DNA of 12,924 nucleotides, taken from the NCBI GenBank assembly GCA_050293845.1, contig JBNKNM010000162.1, positions 1 to 12,924 on the forward strand, given 5' to 3'. Source of the DNA: Pseudobacteriovorax sp. Lineage in GTDB: Bacteria; Bdellovibrionota_B; Oligoflexia; Oligoflexales; Oligoflexaceae. Below are positions 3,452-10,817 of the stretch, piece by piece. The notes under the pieces were generated by a model, which saw only the letters and a program-made list of their open reading frames with translations, ran no database searches and had not been told where the DNA came from. Within the stretch, counting starts at the first letter, position 1; the number at the start of each line of letters is the position of its first letter. Both the position numbers and the translations under genes were made by a program.

Positions 3452-3543
3452 GGGATGCGTCCTTTTTGTCTAAGTTCGATATGTATATTATAGTATATAA
3501 TAGTATTATACAAATACTATCTAATATTGAATTGAACTCATTT

Positions 3544-3620
3544 TGTTCGACTGTCGAACATTTCTTCGTTGCATGGACCTATAACTCTATGAGATAAAAG
3601 ATTTGTTCGATTGGCGAACA
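3544..3620. promoter_or_regulatory. Paired 17-bp operators TGTTCG-N5-CGAACA
   Basis: Perfect palindrome TGTTCGAC-T-GTCGAACA at 3544..3560 and imperfect copy TGTTCGATTGGCGAACA at 3604..3620, exactly 60 bp apart, upstream of the two-gene + strand operon. Confidence 0.65.
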
Positions 3621-3649
3621 TTTTGCAATCATTCAAGAAGGACACGGAA

Positions 3650-4009
3650 GTGGAAGGTGCTTACTATGACCTACTTTTTAAATGGACTGGCGAGATTGTT
3701 CATAATGACAAGAATGACGCCAATGCAAAGCGCTATGCAATAGGTCGACGCAGGTGGTTGTTTCTGAAAAAAAATGCTCAACCGTTTGCATATGAGACTC
3801 GGGAGGATGGTGAGCAGGTGGTGGCCTTTCTCGTCGAATGCGATAGCAAGCTCAGCGGAGACATGCCTCCTGATACGAAATACGAGTATCTATGTGGATC
3901 AATCAAAGGTAATGAGTATGTGATTTTTGCTTATATATGGTTCTCCTCTTTAGAAGACGCTAAATCATATGCACTGGAAAAAAATATGAAGATTAAAGGA
4001 GGCTGGTAA
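3650..4009 (+). CDS. Hypothetical protein, putative toxin of a toxin-antitoxin-like pair
   Basis: ORF track gives TTG 3611, but in-frame GTG 3650 has AAGGA 7 nt upstream. Stop overlaps the next start (TAATG). No family recognised; the toxin role is inferred from context only. Confidence 0.55.
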   Translation: MEGAYYDLLFKWTGEIVHNDKNDANAKRYAIGRRRWLFLKKNAQPFAYETREDGEQVVAFLVECDSKLSGDMPPDTKYEYLCGSIKGNEYVIFAYIWFSSLEDAKSYALEKNMKIKGGW

Positions 4010-4368
4010 TGAAAGAAAAACTTGGGCGTTTCGTGATAGATCTTGAAGCAGCACTAGATGATAAAGGCAACCTTGATGCCAAAAAGTGCCACAGTATCTA
4101 TTTGGAAACAGTAAAAAGAATTTGCCTTGAAGCAAGTGATGCTAGTAACTCAGAGAAAAAAGAGTACTTCGATTTTCTATCGGACCTATCTGATCTGAAG
4201 GACATTGAATTAGCGAAATATCTTGGTGCAACGCGTGGACAAGTTTCAGAGTGGAAGCGAGCAGAGAAAGGTATTAGTAACTCAACATGGGGACTGATTC
4301 GTATTTTTTTCTACGAGTATTTGATTAATGGCGTTATTCATCCCGTGCTGGAGACAAAGGCAGTCTAA
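4009..4368 (+). CDS. XRE/Cro-like HTH protein, putative antitoxin/repressor
   Basis: C-terminal LKDIELAKYLGATRGQVSEWKRAEKGIS HTH pattern, GGAGG RBS, translationally coupled to the upstream ORF. Its stop overlaps the convergent stop of 4365..5030. Confidence 0.7.
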   Translation: MKEKLGRFVIDLEAALDDKGNLDAKKCHSIYLETVKRICLEASDASNSEKKEYFDFLSDLSDLKDIELAKYLGATRGQVSEWKRAEKGISNSTWGLIRIFFYEYLINGVIHPVLETKAV

Positions 4369-5030
4369 CTGGTCTGAAGCCGATCAATAAAATCATTCCT
4401 AAGCGACAAACTCATGCATTCGAATTCAATTCGGGTATCAGTGATATTCACGCGCACCCCAAACTTGCTCCGCAGTGAGTCTACTACGTGGAGCAAATTT
4501 GGATCAGGCTCGCTGGGTTGCTTCCGCACACCGCGCACGGCATTTTCGAAGTTAGTTTTATAGTAAACGGCAGCTTTTCGAAGCTTAGAATATTTCTCCT
4601 GAAGCGCTGATAGTTTTGACTGAAGCTCTTTTGACTCATGTCTAAGGGTTCTATTTTCATGCTTTTCATGGGCTAGAGCCTCGCGAGCGCGTTCAACCTT
4701 CACCGAATTTTTGGTCCCTATGCTATATATACTTATGGACCTCACCACCTGGCTTAGCTTTTTAAGTTTGGTAGCAAGTGTACGGCCAAAAGTTCTAGAC
4801 CGGACGCTGTCAACGATGCGCTTAATAGCAGATTGAGATTTTTTTGCGAGAATATGGCGAGTTTCGATGTCGGCTTTGGCGATAAATTTTAGCCGCGAGA
4901 TCCATCGGCGATCAAGACCAAAGCGTTTTCCAAGCTCTGATTGGGTTTCTTTACTGTGGCGGATTTCAGCTGCAATCCGTATTAGCTCTTTTCCAGATCT
5001 CAAAAGTGCCCCCAGGTGCAAAATACTCAT
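4365..5030 (-). CDS. ParB-like HTH + coiled coil + Spo0J-type C-terminal domain, no CTPase domain (copy A)
   Basis: HTH TQSELGKRFGLDRRWISRL, central heptads, C-terminal DPNLLHVVDSLRSKFGVRVNI..TRIEF...LRNDFIDRL. About 78% identical (hand count, no gaps) to 7974..8642. True start may be TTG at 5003 after a GGGGG RBS. Confidence 0.8.
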   Translation of the reverse strand: MSILHLGALLRSGKELIRIAAEIRHSKETQSELGKRFGLDRRWISRLKFIAKADIETRHILAKKSQSAIKRIVDSVRSRTFGRTLATKLKKLSQVVRSISIYSIGTKNSVKVERAREALAHEKHENRTLRHESKELQSKLSALQEKYSKLRKAAVYYKTNFENAVRGVRKQPSEPDPNLLHVVDSLRSKFGVRVNITDTRIEFECMSLSLRNDFIDRLQTS

Positions 5031-5175
5031 TTATTTAAATAAATTATATAGTTGCTGTATTTTTTTGTAAAGGACAGAGATTATCCCAGGATACAATGTG
5101 CAAAAAATAGGCATTGCGTATTCCAGGCGTGGCGGTAATTACTTGGTTTAAAATATTTAGACAAAAAACATCTGT
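4945..5175 (-). repeat. 231-bp inverted repeat, left copy (pairs with 7829..8059)
   Basis: Reverse complement matches 7829..8059 with 7 mismatches in 145 nt of upstream DNA and none in the first 86 nt of the ORF. Confidence 0.95.
5043..5071 (-). promoter_or_regulatory. Sigma70-type promoter of copy A
   Basis: TTTACA-N17-TATAAT, conserved in both repeat copies. Confidence 0.75.
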
Positions 5176-5332
5176 ATAATGATCACCATACAAGCTCGGC
5201 TGAAAAATTGGCTAAGGGTGAAAATTGATAGTTCACAGGATCTTGTTGATAAAGAGGGTGCTTGAACAAGCAAATACAGGCCATCCCTACGTTCTACCAA
5301 ATTGATTAAATTGCGATCAGTTTTTCCTAGTT

Positions 5333-5800
5333 GGGATCAGTTTAGATACGGAGAAAAATCGAACGATCTTCCAAAATCCCTACCTACCAAGACTTTGCTG
5401 GGATAAAATATTGTAAACCGTCGATCGGGCGATCTTCATCATGGAGGCTATCTCTCCTGCAGTGTGCCCACTTTGCCTCAGCCGGCCAACCTTTTGGTGA
5501 TCAACTTTAAACTTAGGTCCAAATTTAATACCCTTCGCCTTCGCCTCATTCCGACCTTCGTTTGTACGCTCCATTATCCTTTGTCGCTCGGCTTCTGCGA
5601 CAGCCGGAGCCGAATAGGATGTTCGTGACTAAGATATAGCTCGCCTATCACCTTGTCGTTTTGAACACATAAACCGGTACGGCAACTATCTCTTTCAGAA
5701 AAAAAACAACTTGTCAAGGGTTAGGCTCCGACCTCTACATGCTGAGCGGCACGGGTTCTAGGAAGATCGTTCGATTTTTCTCCGTATCTAAACTGATCCC
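5333..5800. mobile_element. 468-bp non-autonomous Tn3-family miniature element
   Basis: Perfect 40-bp terminal inverted repeats GGGATCAGTTTAGATACGGAGAAAAATCGAACGATCTTCC (5333..5372 and 5761..5800) resembling Tn21/Tn501-type ends. Contains a resolvase remnant and no transposase. No 5-bp target duplication is visible (only GTT on both sides). Confidence 0.8.
5380..5604 (-). pseudogene. tnpR: C-terminal fragment of a Tn3/gamma-delta-type serine resolvase
   Basis: [29 protein letters not shown]...[10 protein letters not shown] corresponds to the resolvase E-helix, hinge and HTH. The catalytic N-terminal domain (YARVS) is absent. Confidence 0.9.
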
Positions 5801-5961: not shown

Positions 5962-6129
5962 TCAACCCCTTAGAGCAGAATTTATTCCAAGGGTGAATAT
6001 CGCAAGGTCTCTTGGATTATCAGATAACAGCTTTCTTATAGCAGCGATATCTTTTAAAGAGCGGATCGGTTCCACTCTTATCGTGCTGCCTGGTTTTGGG
6101 TGGTTGATATTTTTCAAAGCATGGACCAT
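5962..6129 (-). pseudogene. N-terminal fragment of a small tyrosine recombinase (phage integrase family)
   Basis: 55 aa, below the ORF-track cutoff: MVHALKNINHPKPGSTIRVEPIRSLKDIAAIRKLLSDNPRDLAIFTLGINSALRG*. VEPIR and RD..IF.LGINSALR match the box I region. The expected DL follows out of frame, then similarity is lost. Confidence 0.85.
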
Positions 6130-6166
6130 AAAATTTTTTGTTGATGGTATGGGCTAACAACAAAAA

Positions 6167-6195
6167 AGAATATGGCGGAGCAAAGAATGTGTCAA
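6167..6195 (-). promoter_or_regulatory. Sigma70-type promoter of the tyrosine recombinase remnant
   Basis: TTGACA-N17-TATTCT. The -35 box overlaps the end of the dyad site at 6194..6225. Confidence 0.6.
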
Positions 6196-6225
6196 TGCTA
6201 ACTTTCGATGATCAGTTAGTATTCA
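6194..6225 (-). other. loxP-like dyad site, copy 1 (candidate tyrosine recombinase site)
   Basis: Minus strand reads TGAATACTAACT-GATCATCG-AAAGTTAGCATT. Both 12-bp flanks are identical to those at 7745..7776. Confidence 0.6.
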
Positions 6226-6330
6226 GAGTCTAAAGATTAGATGTTTTTTTTGATCCACAAAGTTGAGATTAAATTATCTGATTTATCGAATTTCCAAACG
6301 CCGAATGCCACAAGCTTGGTCACTTACCCC

Positions 6331-6921
6331 CTAAATTCCGACACCAATATATAATTTAATGGCACTGAAGTATGCTTCACTGTTTCTGTTGTGACTATTT
6401 TTTCCACTAAATTCATCATGACTACTTTTGGCTGATTCTTTCAGTTTAAATAGTTGGTACCCAAGCCCAAACCACTCGACACCTAATATGAAATTTGAAT
6501 ACTTCCATTCGTTTCCAATTGATATCTTTCCGAGAATTGCATCAGTTTTGTATTCTTCGTAAGAAGATCCACTGCGACGAATAGTTTCAAAGTAGTGATA
6601 ACCAAGACTATAAGATGTAAAAAAAGTTTGTGTCCAAAAATAACTGTGATTAACGGAAGTCAATCTAAAGCTACCATGATTTGAGTTACCAAAAGCTTTT
6701 CCTGATTTGTATGATATTCCAAAATGGTGTGAAACAGAATGATTGTAGGCAATGGATACTCCACTTGATAGCGCTGCCCCACCCTCACCCAAGCTGACAT
6801 CATATTTCGCGGAATAACTAATGGAATCATTACCTGAATGCGGCTTGCTCTCCCTTTGACTGAAAGCATCATTTGAAGTTAGGTAGAAGGTTATTAGTAA
6901 AACAAGTTCAATGATTTTCAT
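6331..6921 (-). CDS. Secreted protein, probable small outer-membrane beta-barrel
   Basis: Signal peptide (MKIIELVLLITFYLTSNDAFS), alternating Gly/aromatic beta-strands (ISIGNEWKYSNFILGVEWFG), C-terminal strand LYIGVGI. Confidence 0.7.
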   Translation of the reverse strand: MKIIELVLLITFYLTSNDAFSQRESKPHSGNDSISYSAKYDVSLGEGGAALSSGVSIAYNHSVSHHFGISYKSGKAFGNSNHGSFRLTSVNHSYFWTQTFFTSYSLGYHYFETIRRSGSSYEEYKTDAILGKISIGNEWKYSNFILGVEWFGLGYQLFKLKESAKSSHDEFSGKNSHNRNSEAYFSAIKLYIGVGI

Positions 6922-7125
6922 ATCAAAAAGACCCTAGATAAAATTTAAAAATTAGATCTTCGAATCCACTAGTTATGGCTTATCTTTCCGGTGAGAGCAG
7001 TTTCGCTCAAAATGGGCCAGTGCACATAGCGACATTCCAGTTTTCTATGGGCTGGTAGAATAGTCCTTTACCAGTCTTGATTAAAATGTCAAAGCTTACT
7101 TATTGACGAATCAATCCTGCTCAAA

Positions 7126-7494
7126 CTACATACATTCGAATTCAATATTGTTGTAATTAAGAGTAGCCACTTTAGGACCACTGCCTTTATTCTCTCGACC
7201 ATTTTTTCTGTTTTGTTGTTCTGCGACAACATCTAAGACGTTAATTGAATAATACTCTTCCGTCTCTGTTCTACCATATCCTTCTTTACGAATACGAATT
7301 TCTCCATCACAGTAGGATTGCGCTAATCTAAGGGCTTCAGATCTTTCAATAGAGGAGTTTCTTTGATATTGTACAATGCCGCCCTTGTACGGATAATTAG
7401 TGTGCTCAATTATTTTAGTGATTGGACCTGAATAACTCGAAATGCAACCAATACACACCATCATTGGAACTATTATGATTTTTTTTCTCAGCAC
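7126..7494 (-). CDS. Putative lipoprotein
   Basis: Basic N-terminus, hydrophobic stretch and lipobox-like CIG-C; two further Cys residues (SYCDG, IEFEC). GTG 7494 is preferred over TTG 7500 for GGAG spacing. Confidence 0.65.
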   Translation of the reverse strand: MLRKKIIIVPMMVCIGCISSYSGPITKIIEHTNYPYKGGIVQYQRNSSIERSEALRLAQSYCDGEIRIRKEGYGRTETEEYYSINVLDVVAEQQNRKNGRENKGSGPKVATLNYNNIEFECM

Positions 7495-7744
7495 TCTCAA
7501 TCTCCAGTTAATTCATCTTCAACGAGCTACCGAATCTAACCAACACCAGCGAAATGTAGTCCAGATTATATAATTGTGATTTTAGAATCTTATAGCTGTG
7601 AACCATTTGAAGCCTGAAAAATTTTCCTCTGTTAGAACTTTTTGTGTTCAACTGTTAAAAATTTTCTTCACAGTTCAAATAGCTCACAAGGCTATCAGTT
7701 TTCTTCTCTAAGATGACATGGCAGAGAGGATAATATTGCAGCCT

Positions 7745-7776
7745 TGAATACTAACTAATGCCCCAAAGTTAGCATT
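7745..7776 (+). other. loxP-like dyad site, copy 2, inverted relative to copy 1
   Basis: TGAATACTAACT-AATGCCCC-AAAGTTAGCATT: same flanks as 6194..6225 with a different 8-nt centre. Confidence 0.6.
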
Positions 7777-7828
7777 CATTTTTACATACCATACATTATG
7801 AAATAAAATTAACAGGTTAGATCAAAAA

Positions 7829-8059
7829 ACAGATGATTTTTGTCTAAATATTTTAAACCAAGTAATAACCGCCACGCCTGGGATACGCGATGCCTATTTT
7901 TTGCACATTGTATCCTGGGACAATCTCTGCCCTTTACAAAAAAATACAACAACTATATAATTTATTTAAATAAATGAGTATTTTGCACCTGGGGGCACTT
8001 TTGAGATCTGGAAAAGAGCTAATACGGATTGCAGCTGAAATCCGCCACAGTAAAGAAAC
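7829..8059 (+). repeat. 231-bp inverted repeat, right copy (pairs with 4945..5175)
   Basis: Gap-free match to the left copy; paired coordinates sum to 13004. Confidence 0.95.
7933..7961 (+). promoter_or_regulatory. Sigma70-type promoter of copy B
   Basis: TTTACA (7933..7938), 17 nt, TATAAT (7956..7961). Confidence 0.75.
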
Positions 8060-8642
8060 TCAATCCGAACTCGGTCGACGCTACAATATTGATCGCCGCT
8101 GGATCTCGAGGCTTAAATTTCTTGCGAAAGCTGATCTAGAGACCCGTCAGATTCTTGCTCGAAAGTCCCAAACGACAATCAAGCGAATCATCGATACAGT
8201 CAGATCCAAGGCATTTGGACGAACACTCGCGACAAAGCTTGAAAAACTACGTCATGCTGTAAGGTCCATAAGTATATATAATATAGGGACGAAAAATGCA
8301 GCCAAGGTCGAGCGGGCACGCGAGGCATTGGCTAATGAAAAGTACGAGCATAGGCAACTAAAAGAAAAGTCAAAAATGCTTGAGCAACAGCATTCTAGCC
8401 TACAAGAAAAACTTTCCAAGCTACGTAAAGCTGCCGTTTACTACAAGACGAATTTTGAGAATGCTGTGCGTGGTGTGCGCAAGCAGACTGCCGAGTCTAA
8501 CCCTAACCTACTCCATGTCATCGATAGCCTTCGCAGTAAGTTTGGGGTGCGAGTATCGATTAACGATACTCGGGTGGAGTTTGATTGTATGAGTTTGTCG
8601 CTGAGAAATGACTTAATTGATAGGTTAACAGCGGCGGATTGA
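7974..8642 (+). CDS. ParB-like HTH + coiled coil + Spo0J-type C-terminal domain, no CTPase domain (copy B)
   Basis: Paralog of 4365..5030 with many synonymous and conservative changes, supporting a real gene. True start may be TTG 8001 after GGGGG (7991..7995). Confidence 0.8.
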   Translation: MSILHLGALLRSGKELIRIAAEIRHSKETQSELGRRYNIDRRWISRLKFLAKADLETRQILARKSQTTIKRIIDTVRSKAFGRTLATKLEKLRHAVRSISIYNIGTKNAAKVERAREALANEKYEHRQLKEKSKMLEQQHSSLQEKLSKLRKAAVYYKTNFENAVRGVRKQTAESNPNLLHVIDSLRSKFGVRVSINDTRVEFDCMSLSLRNDLIDRLTAAD

Positions 8643-8779: not shown

Positions 8780-8809
8780 GAAGAGGGGAGATTTCTGTAT
8801 CCCCTCTTC
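8780..8809. terminator. Hairpin between convergent genes, candidate terminator
   Basis: GAAGAGGGGA-N10-TCCCCTCTTC touching the stop codon of 8808..9623; U-tract is weak. Confidence 0.45.
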
Positions 8810-9623
8810 AATATTGATAGTTCAATTGATATATAGTTTTCCTATCAGGATTTTTTGATCGCTTAATAACCTTCTTAGTTTCCATTTTTTTAAGAGCTAC
8901 AGTTAGGTGAGAAGACGGAATACCAGTCCCCAATTCAAGCTCCCGGTTAGTCGCAACAAATGTGATCTGATTTTTTTGAATTTGAACTTTTAACAAATAT
9001 ACCAAGATACGCATTTCTGTCTTATTCAAATCATGTCCGCCCAAATAATCAAGCATGGACATAACATGTTTCTTACTTAACCTACTATTATAATGAATAT
9101 TTTCTGAGTCATTACCATTTCTTGGCACATTTTCCGTAGCTACGCTTTTCGTACTAAGATTTCTATAATTTGGTCCTTCGGAATCAAAGTTTTTTGTAGC
9201 TACGTCTTTAGCAGCTACTGATTCCGTAGCTACAGATTTCGTAGCAATACTTTTAGCACCTACTGATTCCGTAGGTACGTCTTCAGCATCTACAATTTTC
9301 GTAGCTACACTTTTAGCACCTACTGATTTCGTAGGTACATCTTTAGTATCTACAGTTTTCGTAGCTACACTTTTAGCACCTACTGATTCCGTAGGTACGT
9401 CTTCAGTATCTACAGTTTTCGTAGCTACACTTTTAGCACTTACTGTTTCTGCATCGGAAACTTTTCTTTCATCGAGTTGCTTTGATTTTTTCTTAGATGT
9501 AGTTTTTGACTTAGAACTTTTAAGTAGTTTATCTCCTTCTTTTAAAATACTCAGATTGTCATAGTTATTTTTAGACTTTTTATTCTTAGCTCTTTTTCCT
9601 AATATTTCAGTTATAGTTGCCAT
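8808..9623 (-). CDS. ParA-coupled protein: basic N-terminus, pentapeptide repeats, C-terminal winged helix
   Basis: Start overlaps the parA stop (TAATG). C-terminal LNKTEMRILVYLL...ATNRELELGTGIPSSHLTVALKKMETKKVIKR...TIYQL is a wHTH pattern. No ParB CTPase motif. Confidence 0.75.
   Translation of the reverse strand: MATITEILGKRAKNKKSKNNYDNLSILKEGDKLLKSSKSKTTSKKKSKQLDERKVSDAETVSAKSVATKTVDTEDVPTESVGAKSVATKTVDTKDVPTKSVGAKSVATKIVDAEDVPTESVGAKSIATKSVATESVAAKDVATKNFDSEGPNYRNLSTKSVATENVPRNGNDSENIHYNSRLSKKHVMSMLDYLGGHDLNKTEMRILVYLLKVQIQKNQITFVATNRELELGTGIPSSHLTVALKKMETKKVIKRSKNPDRKTIYQLNYQY
9196..9443. repeat. Intragenic array: 17 G(T/C)ANNTAC octamers at 15-bp period with a 60-bp higher-order repeat
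   Basis: Octamers at 9196, 9211, 9226 ... 9436 (GTAGCTAC, GCACCTAC, GTAGGTAC, GTATCTAC; the 9241 copy is degenerate), plus an in-phase GTAGCTAC at 9136. Confidence 0.95.
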
Positions 9624-10660
9624 TATCTACCTACAGCCTCCTCACCCAAATTGTTCACTACAGAAGATGATTTTGTTCTTTTTTTCGCTGATGCCCATTG
9701 ATCAATAACGAGAATTTTCTTAGTGATAGAATCCAATCCCTCTAGGGCAGTAAGTTTTTTTCTACTCATAGCCCAAATGCTCTTATTTTTCTTTATTGCA
9801 TCTGCCATAGGTTTTGATGTTGAGATTATTGACTCGAACACATCATCATTGTATTTGCTTTTTAGGTCAGCAATGAGTTCGTAGGCACTTGTGTGACTGG
9901 CGTTAAACTTATTTAGTATGACCAACTTTTGTGGTGAGTTTTTCCATTCTTTTTCAACTTGAGAAACATGATCATATGTAAGCTCAACACCAAATAGACC
10001 AAAGGTGTCAGGATCTGTTGGTATGATACAAGTATCCACATAACTATGTACAGCCATAGTAACTCTATTGAAATCACATGATAAATCAAAAAGTATTAGA
10101 TCATACTCATCTTCTAAATCCCCAAGTAGGGTGGGTATTATATTTCCGATATTAGAAGAATTTAGTTGCAGCAGTAGATCCAAGTTCGCAAGTTTAAGGT
10201 TAGCTGGTAATAAGTGAAGAAACGGAGTTAGCTCAACAATATAATCACTATAATCGATATCTTCACCATCTCTTTCTGCAGTATACAAATCCATAAAATT
10301 GCAAAAATCATCCTTTTTTGGATGTAAAGCTAATGACATCGTCAAATTTGCTTGCTTATCAAGATCTATTAACAATGTCTTGAATCCATAGGAACTTGCT
10401 CTAGTTCCCACACCATGTGCAATTGTCGTCTTCCCAGCTCCACCTTTTACTGTATGAATTGCCACCTTTTTCTTAACCCTGGGTATCTGACGCATATCAG
10501 TAATTTCTCTTACCTGTGCAGGGTAGATTCGATCGGATTTATTTGTTCCCTTTTTTTCAATTCCATTTTCGCGACAAAACTTATGCACCGCCTGAGCTGT
10601 AACTCCTAATACCTCACCTAGTTCTTGGGCAGTTAAAAAATAGTCAAAAAGCTCACTCAT
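9623..10660 (-). CDS. parA: Type Ia ParA ATPase with N-terminal HTH
   Basis: N-terminal LTAQELGEVLGVTAQAVHKF HTH, Walker A KGGAGKTT, IDLDKQANLT, YDLILFD; GGAG RBS. Confidence 0.92.
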   Translation of the reverse strand: MSELFDYFLTAQELGEVLGVTAQAVHKFCRENGIEKKGTNKSDRIYPAQVREITDMRQIPRVKKKVAIHTVKGGAGKTTIAHGVGTRASSYGFKTLLIDLDKQANLTMSLALHPKKDDFCNFMDLYTAERDGEDIDYSDYIVELTPFLHLLPANLKLANLDLLLQLNSSNIGNIIPTLLGDLEDEYDLILFDLSCDFNRVTMAVHSYVDTCIIPTDPDTFGLFGVELTYDHVSQVEKEWKNSPQKLVILNKFNASHTSAYELIADLKSKYNDDVFESIISTSKPMADAIKKNKSIWAMSRKKLTALEGLDSITKKILVIDQWASAKKRTKSSSVVNNLGEEAVGR

Positions 10661-10723
10661 TGGCGAATCTCCAAAGTATATAAAAAACGTATTACAACTA
10701 AATTTTAGAAAACAATTCTCATC

Positions 10724-10817
10724 ATTTCTACGAAAAACGTACCTACTTAAGTTGTATCTACGAAATATGTAGATACAACTTAAGTAGGTACGTTAACTGT
10801 AGGTACATAATCCGTAC
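10724..10817. repeat. Non-coding GTANNTAC array at 15-bp period containing a perfect 26-bp-arm palindrome
   Basis: GTACCTAC 10739, GTATCTAC 10754, GTAGATAC 10769, GTAGGTAC 10784, GTAGGTAC 10799, with in-phase half sites at 10724 and 10814. 10736..10761 is the exact reverse complement of 10769..10794. Confidence 0.92.

Follow-up and report, generated by a model that had tools for sequence, protein, structure and literature searches.

Two dyad sites with identical arms and unlike centres on a Pseudobacteriovorax contig as candidate core sites of a family of catalytic-domain-only tyrosine recombinases

A contig of 12,924 bp (C162) from a draft genome of Pseudobacteriovorax sp. (6.68 Mb in 741 contigs) was analyzed over its whole length, which is referred to as the window. 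It contains two copies of a dyad site, termed site 1 and site 2, which flank the genes for a putative outer-membrane beta-barrel protein and a putative lipoprotein. Site 1 is located upstream of a remnant of a tyrosine recombinase gene. We favour, with moderate confidence, the reading that these two sites are cognate recombination sites which are unable to recombine with each other, each of them coming from one of two inverted copies of a plasmid backbone. The features of the region are as follows.

4365..5030, minus strand: coiled-coil backbone gene copy 1, 221 aa, in the left arm of the inverted repeat 4380-5184 / 7820-8624
5333..5800, no strand assigned: element of 468 bp with 48-nt inverted repeats (94% complementary), between the recombinase remnant and backbone copy 1
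5962..6129, minus strand: remnant of a catalytic-domain-only tyrosine recombinase, of which residues 1-51 are left and which ends just after the first catalytic Arg
6167..6195, minus strand: sigma-70-like promoter match TTGACA-17-TATTCT, abutting site 1 and directed at the remnant (consensus match only)
6194..6225, minus strand: site 1, putative core recombination site, 65 nt upstream of the recombinase remnant, with centre TCATCG and 12-bp arms
6331..6921, minus strand: putative outer-membrane beta-barrel protein, 196 aa (cargo; ESM-Atlas lead)
7126..7500, minus strand: putative lipoprotein, 124 aa (cargo), with a lipobox-like ...VCIGC near the N-terminus, read by eye
7634..7746, no strand assigned: flank A, a conserved stretch of ~110 nt on the left arm of site 2, which also occurs by the site on contigs C379, C332 and C725, before different cargo genes
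7745..7776, plus strand: site 2, with the same arms and a different centre, 198 nt upstream of the 222-aa backbone gene
7974..8642, plus strand: backbone gene copy 2, a 222-aa paralogue of the 221-aa gene (79% identical as protein)

The sequence TGAATACTAACT-N8-AAAGTTAGCATT is found twice in the window by sequence read-out and pattern search, at 6194-6225 on the minus strand and at 7745-7776 on the plus strand. The plus-strand letters of site 1 are AATGCTAACTTTCGATGATCAGTTAGTATTCA, the reverse complement of which is TGAATACTAACT-GATCATCG-AAAGTTAGCATT, and site 2 is TGAATACTAACT-AATGCCCC-AAAGTTAGCATT. The two sites are 1519 bases apart. Their arms (12+12) are identical at 24 of 24 positions and their centres at 3 of 8, which gives a total of 27/32 (84%). 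This result confirms the first-pass annotation, made from the letters of this stretch alone, in which two sites with 24/24 identical flank bases, dyad symmetry and unrelated centres were described. Only site 1 and site 2 match the IUPAC-coded motif in the window when up to three mismatches are allowed, and none of 200 dinucleotide shuffles matches it. The site pair is genuine and is not a product of chance. Each site is arranged as 12+8+12, or as 12-6-12 in the register of the recombinase family described below, with two inverted arms and a short asymmetric centre, which is the layout of lox/FRT/dif-type core recombination sites. Between the 6-bp centres of site 1 and site 2, one of six positions agrees in the direct register and two of six in the inverted register.

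Both sites are abutted by promoter-like hexamers, which are consensus matches. The promoter-like match at 6195-6167 on the minus strand shares two bases with site 1, and the earlier statement that one site overlaps the -35 box of the truncated recombinase gene is therefore roughly right. The sites had also been said to enclose exactly the beta-barrel and lipoprotein genes, and these are the sole open reading frames (ORFs) of at least 50 aa wholly between them, barring one nested frame of 70 aa. The N-terminus of the 196-aa protein resembles a signal peptide, and the closest clusters in ESM-Atlas are labelled 'outer membrane protein beta-barrel' with a score of 0.97, which is taken as a lead only. 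Neither the 196-aa nor the 124-aa protein is assigned to a family of Pfam or NCBIfam. A repeat of ~70 nt is present at 6244-6311, just past site 1 and downstream of the outer membrane protein gene. This repeat recurs on at least nine other contigs of the genome and forms loose ends in contigs of the sister samples.

The 55-aa ORF at 5962-6129 on the minus strand aligns to residues 1-51 of a 197-aa recombinase encoded on another contig of the genome (C16) with 86% identity, so that the truncated tyrosine recombinase proposed next to the site is indeed the first 51 residues of this protein. The homology between the remnant and the intact gene ends at ~5965, and it is followed by unrelated DNA and then by the 468-bp inverted-repeat element. 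This element encloses the C-terminal helix-turn-helix remnant of a serine resolvase (5380-5574). It is a miniature element, and one of its arms recurs on contig C516. The catalytic set R-K-H-x-x-R-H/W-Y is incomplete in the window copy and complete in the C16 copy. The C16 protein matches Pfam Phage_integrase (PF00589) with an E value of 6.1e-13 and 49.3 bits versus a cut-off of 27.1. Its NCBIfam matches (E up to 0.01) are to Xer-type models only, all far below their cut-offs, and the best of them is the XerA/integron-integrase model with 62 bits versus a cut-off of 220. The protein consists of the catalytic domain only and has no N-terminal core-binding domain. In its AlphaFold model, for which the predicted local distance difference test (pLDDT) score is 89, the first 20 residues are unstructured and are followed by the standard fold. 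The best fold matches of this model in the PDB are XerA (5hxy), XerH (5jjv) and Cre, with a template-modelling (TM) score of about 0.7, and the sequence identity to solved recombinases is 14-26%. Copies or fragments of the recombinase gene are found on 17 contigs of the genome, 11 of them at E up to 1e-10. The C16 gene is the sole intact one in the assembly, the C53 copy stops just before the catalytic Tyr, and the other loci are fragments. An alignment of 80 homologues shows R, K, HxxR, H and Y in at least 90% of the proteins, and a second set of 55 has them throughout. The intact enzyme would be expected to bind the dyads and to catalyze strand exchange at them. Between the site and the only intact recombinase gene (C16:50054-50827, equivalent to L005:8055-8828) there are a DUF4258 gene and a gene of 145 aa, which resemble a toxin-antitoxin pair.

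Homologues of the C16 recombinase were compared at one genome per species, which gave 80 loci at 47-60% identity from an Oligoflexales genome, Desulfobacterota, Geobacter, cyanobacteria, alpha- and gamma-proteobacteria, Nitrospirota and others. When a strict motif is used (CTAACT-N10-AGTTAG with at most two arm mismatches, within 500 bp upstream of the gene), the dyad is detected upstream of the recombinase gene in 45 of the 80 loci, mostly at -163 to -219. The number of dyads is 49 in 38.7 kb of upstream sequence versus 10 in the other 425.8 kb, which corresponds to a 54-fold enrichment. A motif-free scan for 14-6-14 dyads gives a score of at least 11/14 in 40 of 78 upstream windows versus 10 of 277 controls, and it reveals lineage variants of the same design, such as CGAATCTAAACTTT...AAAGTTTAGATTCG. 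The Spartinivicinus plasmid pC carries a perfect AACTCACTAACTTT-TACCTT-AAAGTTAGTGAGTT dyad ~130 bp upstream of a homologue with 46% identity, and the Kovacikia plasmid pB carries a similar dyad by its recombinase homologue. The recombinase gene is present in 4 of 22 genomes of the host family of the window. One of these genomes (G011) has two modules: in one, a frameshifted gene copy is preceded by window-type arms at a distance of 165-195 nt, and in the other the arms are different. Another genome (G012) has a degenerate dyad. A single recombinase-adjacent site is found on each of three chromosomes, and each of three Leptolyngbya plasmids likewise has one site. When other genomes were searched with loose patterns, the totals were no better than those of a reversed-pattern control, and from these searches exact matches next to a recombinase gene alone were used. 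The genes around the recombinase loci are not conserved and are mostly of unknown function or related to defence or mobile elements.

The check suggested in the first-pass annotation, in which the site is looked for upstream of intact homologues, is thus positive in 45 of the 80 loci, on the two plasmids pC and pB, and in G011. This result supports, at the level of sequence, the conclusion that the dyads are sites for an element-encoded tyrosine recombinase and not for XerCD. The fact that the site accompanies such a recombinase across phyla argues against the use of host XerC/XerD. The earlier proposal of a plasmid-encoded recombinase in place of XerCD is supported in this respect, but the mobile pdif-like module that formed part of it is not supported, as described below.

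The site of this family is arranged as ~14-6-14, with inverted arms and a free centre. Among 51 sites, the inner AACT/AGTT is nearly invariant, and 40 distinct centres are found. Arm positions 3-8 vary between loci and yet are complementary in 42-47 of the 51 sites, although selection accounts for part of this complementarity, because the 51 sites were chosen as best dyads. In 11 of 53 site-bearing loci (L034, L055, L058, L060, L068, L069, L070, L071, L082, L095 and L096, all from alpha- or gamma-proteobacteria), a second site, with a 6-bp centre exactly reverse-complementary to that of the proximal site, is present 120-131 bp farther from the gene. The centres of these pairs vary from locus to locus, and control hexamers never exceed 5 of 8 arm bases. 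The segment between the paired sites is 86-89 nt (97 nt in L055), and in several loci a -35-like TTGA(C) is seen by eye near its gene-side end. Inverted sites with an identical overlap are an inversion substrate, and the paired sites therefore look like small FimB/FimE-type switches. The 120-131-bp pairs of alpha- and gamma-proteobacteria probably represent a small invertible switch before the recombinase gene. The exactly matched centres of all 11 pairs indicate that working pairs in this recombinase family have matched overlaps. A further case, in which the centre of L085 was taken as the flipped centre of L087, was dropped, because these centres differ at only two of six positions.

The pairs of the relatives raise the question of whether site 1 and site 2 form an invertible phase-variation switch that toggles the envelope genes between them. 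The two sites are inverted beside a small recombinase, as the pairs of the relatives are, and envelope proteins are typical phase-variable cargo. However, the centres of site 1 and site 2 match at 2 of 6 positions in the inverted register versus 6 of 6 in all 11 relatives, and the adjacent recombinase gene is truncated. In addition, promoter-like matches on the gene strand are located inside the segment, so that inversion would not uncouple the promoters from the genes. Such a switch in the window is thus very improbable. The earlier argument that mismatched spacers speak against simple inversion is strengthened, because the relatives' centres match in 11 of 11 pairs and those of the window do not. 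An even more remote alternative is that the dyad serves as a transfer origin, at which an atypical relaxase of recombinase-like fold would make a nick, by analogy with TcpM, a relaxase of this kind from Clostridium perfringens plasmids. The intergenic position of the site, upstream of a small recombinase-fold gene on plasmids, would suit such an origin, but the full recombinase catalytic set is conserved, and the symmetric 14-6-14 structure and the matched inverted centres fit a recombination core rather than a nick site. Many recombinase loci are moreover chromosomal and have no conjugation genes nearby.

The edges of the recombinase loci were analyzed by comparing the points at which homology ends among the 80 loci. 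Of 147 pairs with a site in both loci and an alignment covering the gene, 127 stop short of the site, 15 end in or at the site, and 5 pass beyond it, so that homology breaks at the site in 15 of the 20 pairs in which it reaches the site. Within one cyanobacterial genome, two copies share 92% identity over the region between the site and a point ~120 nt beyond the stop codon, and they are unrelated outside it. This result indicates that the gene, a spacer of ~150 bp and the site constitute a self-contained module, of which the site marks the edge. In four related pairs the homology runs ~117-130 nt past the site. This extension contains a small upstream ORF in L039/L050 and a second site in L068/L082 and in L060/L071, and the fourth pair is L075/L094.

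Seven full sites, each with a different centre, are present in the genome. C162 has two of them, and C16, C379, C225, C332 and C95 have one each. Six of the seven have no recombinase gene beside them. A further contig, C725, carries flank A and the left half-site only (200-290). The right arm is the same in six of the seven full sites and faces the backbone, which consists of the 221-aa gene followed by kfrA, parA and parB. The left arm varies and faces cargo genes directed away from the site, among them lipoprotein genes, the gene for a GNAT acetyltransferase and a CsgG/DUF4810/GNA1162 operon. At four sites the left arm is joined to flank A, and at three to four sites the right arm is joined to a flank B of 85 nt. 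Inspection of flank A by eye for accessory recombinase half-sites revealed no conserved repeat. The homology between copies in the genome breaks off 2 nt beyond the site in one alignment and 17 nt short of it in a second one, and contigs of the sister samples diverge from the window at 7745 and 7777/7778. Breaks of synteny at the site, which the first-pass annotation had proposed to look for, are thus found inside the genome as well as in the 15 of 20 related locus pairs. No two sites of the genome share a centre, the nearest being those of site 2 (TGCCCC) and the C16 site (TGCCCA), which match at 5 of 6 positions. A search of the genome for partner centres, in which a threshold of 6 of 8 arm bases gave only noise, revealed none above noise, and its two matches with 8/8 arm bases (C221:5918 and C43:15681) are at chance level. 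In Logan contigs of the sample X1, which is probably the source sample, and of X2-X4 from the same study, no joint between 6194-6225 and 7745-7776 is found, although contigs cannot show rare isomers. The joints 6117>7746 and 7778>8100 come from a C16-like paralogue. A compact AATGCCAACT-GA-AAGTTAAC palindrome is present beside recombinase fragments at C725:200-290 and C100:828-848, and these palindromes may be scars of aberrant events at the site.

These arrangements are relevant to an active pdif-like module system, in which the recombinase would move cargo between plasmids despite the unlike centres, via cointegrates or replication-resolved single strand exchange. Such a system would account for the presence of one half-site and of seven full sites, six of them without an adjacent recombinase gene, for the different cargo that is always on the left-arm side, and for the mosaic flanks, which break 2 to 17 nt from the site and at which the sister contigs diverge exactly at 7745 and 7777/7778. 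Two other loci likewise bracket cargo with the same arms and different centres. One is a contig of Ca. Anammoxibacter, in which L083:955 and L083:2837 have unrelated centres and are 1882 nt apart, the cargo being a 399-aa gene of unknown function. The other is Spartinivicinus pC, in which L016:2327-2360 and L016:5396-5417 have unrelated centres and are ~3 kb apart, the cargo being the recombinase gene and a methyl-accepting chemotaxis gene. In Acinetobacter, Xer sites are reported to drive cointegration and not excision, and their compatibility depends on the site sequence (PMC11705084). Against such a system, the cargo genes of the window are found in no second context: elsewhere in the genome the outer membrane protein gene is represented by a fragment of 44 aa only and the lipoprotein gene not at all, and neither is present in 30 metagenome loci with the motif. 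No centre is shared among the sites of the genome (best 5/6), whereas the paired sites of the relatives are all perfectly matched, and no second complete module is visible, the contigs being short. We therefore regard an active module system as unlikely. The earlier interpretation of the cassette as a pdif-like module is not supported, because neither envelope gene recurs in another context in the genome or in the 30 metagenome loci, and the presence of two diverged backbone copies, each with its own site, fits as a simpler reading.

A purely regulatory role was also considered, in which the dyad would only bind a repressor, either an autoregulator with a recombinase fold or the 221-aa protein, and no recombination would occur. 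The site has a fixed position upstream of the gene, and it is located 198-252 nt upstream of three of five homologues of the 221-aa gene in the genome. The hexamers abutting both window sites would also suit an operator, and repressor-only proteins with a recombinase fold, MrpR/YopR, are known. However, at least 90% of the 80 homologues retain all catalytic residues, the Tyr nucleophile among them, and the 11 exact reverse-complement centre pairs, with centres that otherwise differ freely, reflect a requirement of strand exchange and not of an operator. A search of 72,556 plasmid records with the 222-aa backbone protein gave no match, and the 221-aa protein is likewise without a homologue there, although these records do contain the site beside the recombinase. 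In addition, contig C405 carries the 221-aa gene but no site. An exclusively regulatory dyad is for these reasons improbable.

On comparison of its two halves, the whole contig (1-12924) is an imperfect palindrome, built from two copies of a single plasmid backbone that have diverged. Its 221-aa and 222-aa genes make up an inverted repeat of 805 nt (4380-5184 / 7820-8624) with 78% identity, and the genes of 259 aa and 283 aa at the contig ends are paralogues with 53% identity. Together with a 368-aa gene, these are the backbone genes of the contig. One backbone copy is accompanied by kfrA-parA-parB and the other by a Rep-like gene and a second parA. The right-end genes of the contig match the genes after parB on C16 with 87% and 57% identity. 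Taken together, these findings indicate that each half of the contig is a copy of the backbone that is seen singly on C16. C16 has one site, located ~235 nt upstream of a 212-aa gene. Site 2 is in the same place, 198 nt upstream of its backbone gene copy. Site 1 and backbone copy 1 are set apart by the recombinase remnant and the inverted-repeat element.

According to the reading that we favour, the dyads would be the core recombination sites of the ~197-aa catalytic-domain-only recombinases, with inverted arms of 12-14 bp and an overlap of 6 bp. Site 1 would be the own site of the adjacent recombinase gene, which is now cut to 51 codons, and site 2 would be the equivalent site of the second, diverged and inverted backbone copy. 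Because the 6-bp overlaps of site 1 and site 2 differ, the two sites should neither invert nor excise the segment between them. Each site would instead recombine only with a copy that has the same overlap, such as its twin when the plasmid is present as a dimer or a matching site carried by a different replicon, and could in this way serve in resolution or cointegration. The Xer sites of Acinetobacter are reported to follow a comparable logic (PMC11705084). The enzyme would be supplied in trans from the intact C16 paralogue. The arms are identical at 24 of 24 positions although the backbones are only 78% identical, which suggests that they are under constraint, presumably from binding of the enzyme supplied in trans. 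The envelope genes would be cargo caught between two junctions of backbone and cargo, and not a proven mobile cassette.

Several observations weigh against this reading. The strict motif is missing in 35 of the 80 homologue loci, many of which have variant dyads. No dyad is seen at Solidesulfovibrio pDCAR5 (L014), and the closest relative from the same family (L098, G021, 74% identity) has no dyad within 420 nt. The reverse test is weak, since only 4 of the 30 metagenome loci that exactly match the window-type motif contain a recombinase homologue within the sequence covered, with the site 140-172 nt upstream of it. The other metagenome loci are probably in part chance matches in a very large collection, one being located by Ycf4 and one by SusD. 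Some look like true orphan sites by toxin-antitoxin or chemotaxis genes, and some are cut contigs. The site may have a second function as an operator for the backbone protein, given its position upstream of three of the five homologues of the 221-aa gene. The proposed mechanism accounts neither for flank A, with its conserved 110 nt, nor for the A/G asymmetry that is constant in the arms, and the case for a role in resolution is drawn from the observation that replicons usually carry a single site.

The C16 family resembles Cre/loxP of phage P1 in that one tyrosine recombinase is combined with a ~34-bp site composed of two inverted arms and a short asymmetric centre. As in resolution systems of this type, the site adjoins the recombinase gene and is usually present once per replicon. 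Cre/loxP is a plasmid resolution system with one recombinase, one site and an 8-bp centre, and Cre is much longer than ~197 aa. The C16 family differs from it in its length of ~197 aa, the lack of an N-terminal core-binding domain and the 6-bp centre. XerA and XerH are similar to the C16 protein in the catalytic fold and in the use of a single recombinase on a palindrome-like site with a 6-bp centre. Unlike them, the C16 protein lacks the N-terminal domain, and its gene is accessory and patchy (4 of 22 family genomes) and is located in variable or plasmid regions and not at the chromosome terminus. It also differs from the integron integrase IntI, which has more than 300 aa with a specific insertion, in its length of 197 aa and in scoring 62 bits against the cut-off of 220.

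FimB/FimE-fimS is an invertible promoter switch operated by tyrosine recombinases. The family shares with it recombinases of ~200 aa, and 11 relatives have identical inverted 6-bp cores around a segment of 86-97 nt just upstream of the gene, which in several of them has a -35-like TTGAC. However, no NCBIfam model for FimB/FimE is matched at E up to 0.01, and the window pair lacks the defining feature of fimS, because its centres are unlike and its segment is 1.5 kb long. The sites of the window genome resemble Acinetobacter pdif/xrs modules in the presence of several sites with conserved arms and differing centres, in the cargo bracketed by inverted sites and in the mosaic flanks. In contrast to these modules, the family site is tied to its own recombinase gene across phyla and not to XerC/XerD, and the window cassette has been seen in one context only.

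At E up to 1e-10, the recombinase family is represented by no fewer than 2846 clusters, and almost all of these have a length of ~197 aa. Homologues are present in 1296 plasmid records. Its members are labelled in the source only as 'integrase' or 'tyrosine-type recombinase', and the nearest named organism is Pseudobacteriovorax antillogorgiicola with 73% identity. No description of the ~197-aa recombinase family or its site was found in a limited body of literature, and no such group is named in the passages of a 2021 classification paper (PMC8138268) that matched a term search. The family appears to be uncharacterised. Only tentatively do we extend the findings to a general scheme, which seems to us possible but rather doubtful. 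In this scheme, a large family of minimal ~197-aa recombinases would each have a lox-like 14-6-14 site at the edge of a 0.8-0.9-kb module, and the alpha- and gamma-proteobacterial modules would carry a strictly spaced 120-bp invertible switch before the gene. The orphan sites with diversified overlaps at the backbone/cargo junctions of several plasmids in the window genome would represent a plasmid-encoded, pdif-like control of replicon fusion and envelope-cargo exchange.

If the pairing of enzyme and site is true, it would be among the smallest recombinase-plus-site systems, with an enzyme of ~197 aa and a site of 34 bp. Its many natural specificities, which result from co-varying arms and free centres, would be of use for genome engineering, and thousands of genes labelled only 'integrase' could be better annotated. 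It would also provide a second, Xer-independent case in which conserved arms and diversified overlaps control which co-resident plasmids recombine. The inverted 120-bp pairs of the relatives are a candidate for a new phase-variation switch. The window holds a decayed copy of the system, and the findings at the level of the family are directly testable.

Several other features of the window were also noted. The RNA fold of the 246-nt leader at 7501-7746 on the minus strand has a z-score of -1.9 and is not distinctive. A palindromic TTTGTTCGACTGTCGAACATTT is present in two copies 60 nt apart, at 3542-3563 and 3602-3623, upstream of the ORF at 3611-4009, and a weaker copy is located inside flank A at 7643-7664. 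A scan of the whole window against Rfam with E up to 1 detects nothing near the sites or flank A and gives only weak sub-threshold matches, at the palindrome 10706-10803. The ORF at 8808-9623 on the minus strand encodes a 271-aa protein with weak RepL/DnaD-like winged-helix matches at its C-terminus, and it contains a periodic 15-nt repeat array at 9127-9490, which encodes five-residue repeats of this protein. A perfect 26-nt inverted repeat with a 7-nt spacer is located at 10736-10794, just upstream of the second parA (9623-10660, minus strand), and it may be a partition or operator site.

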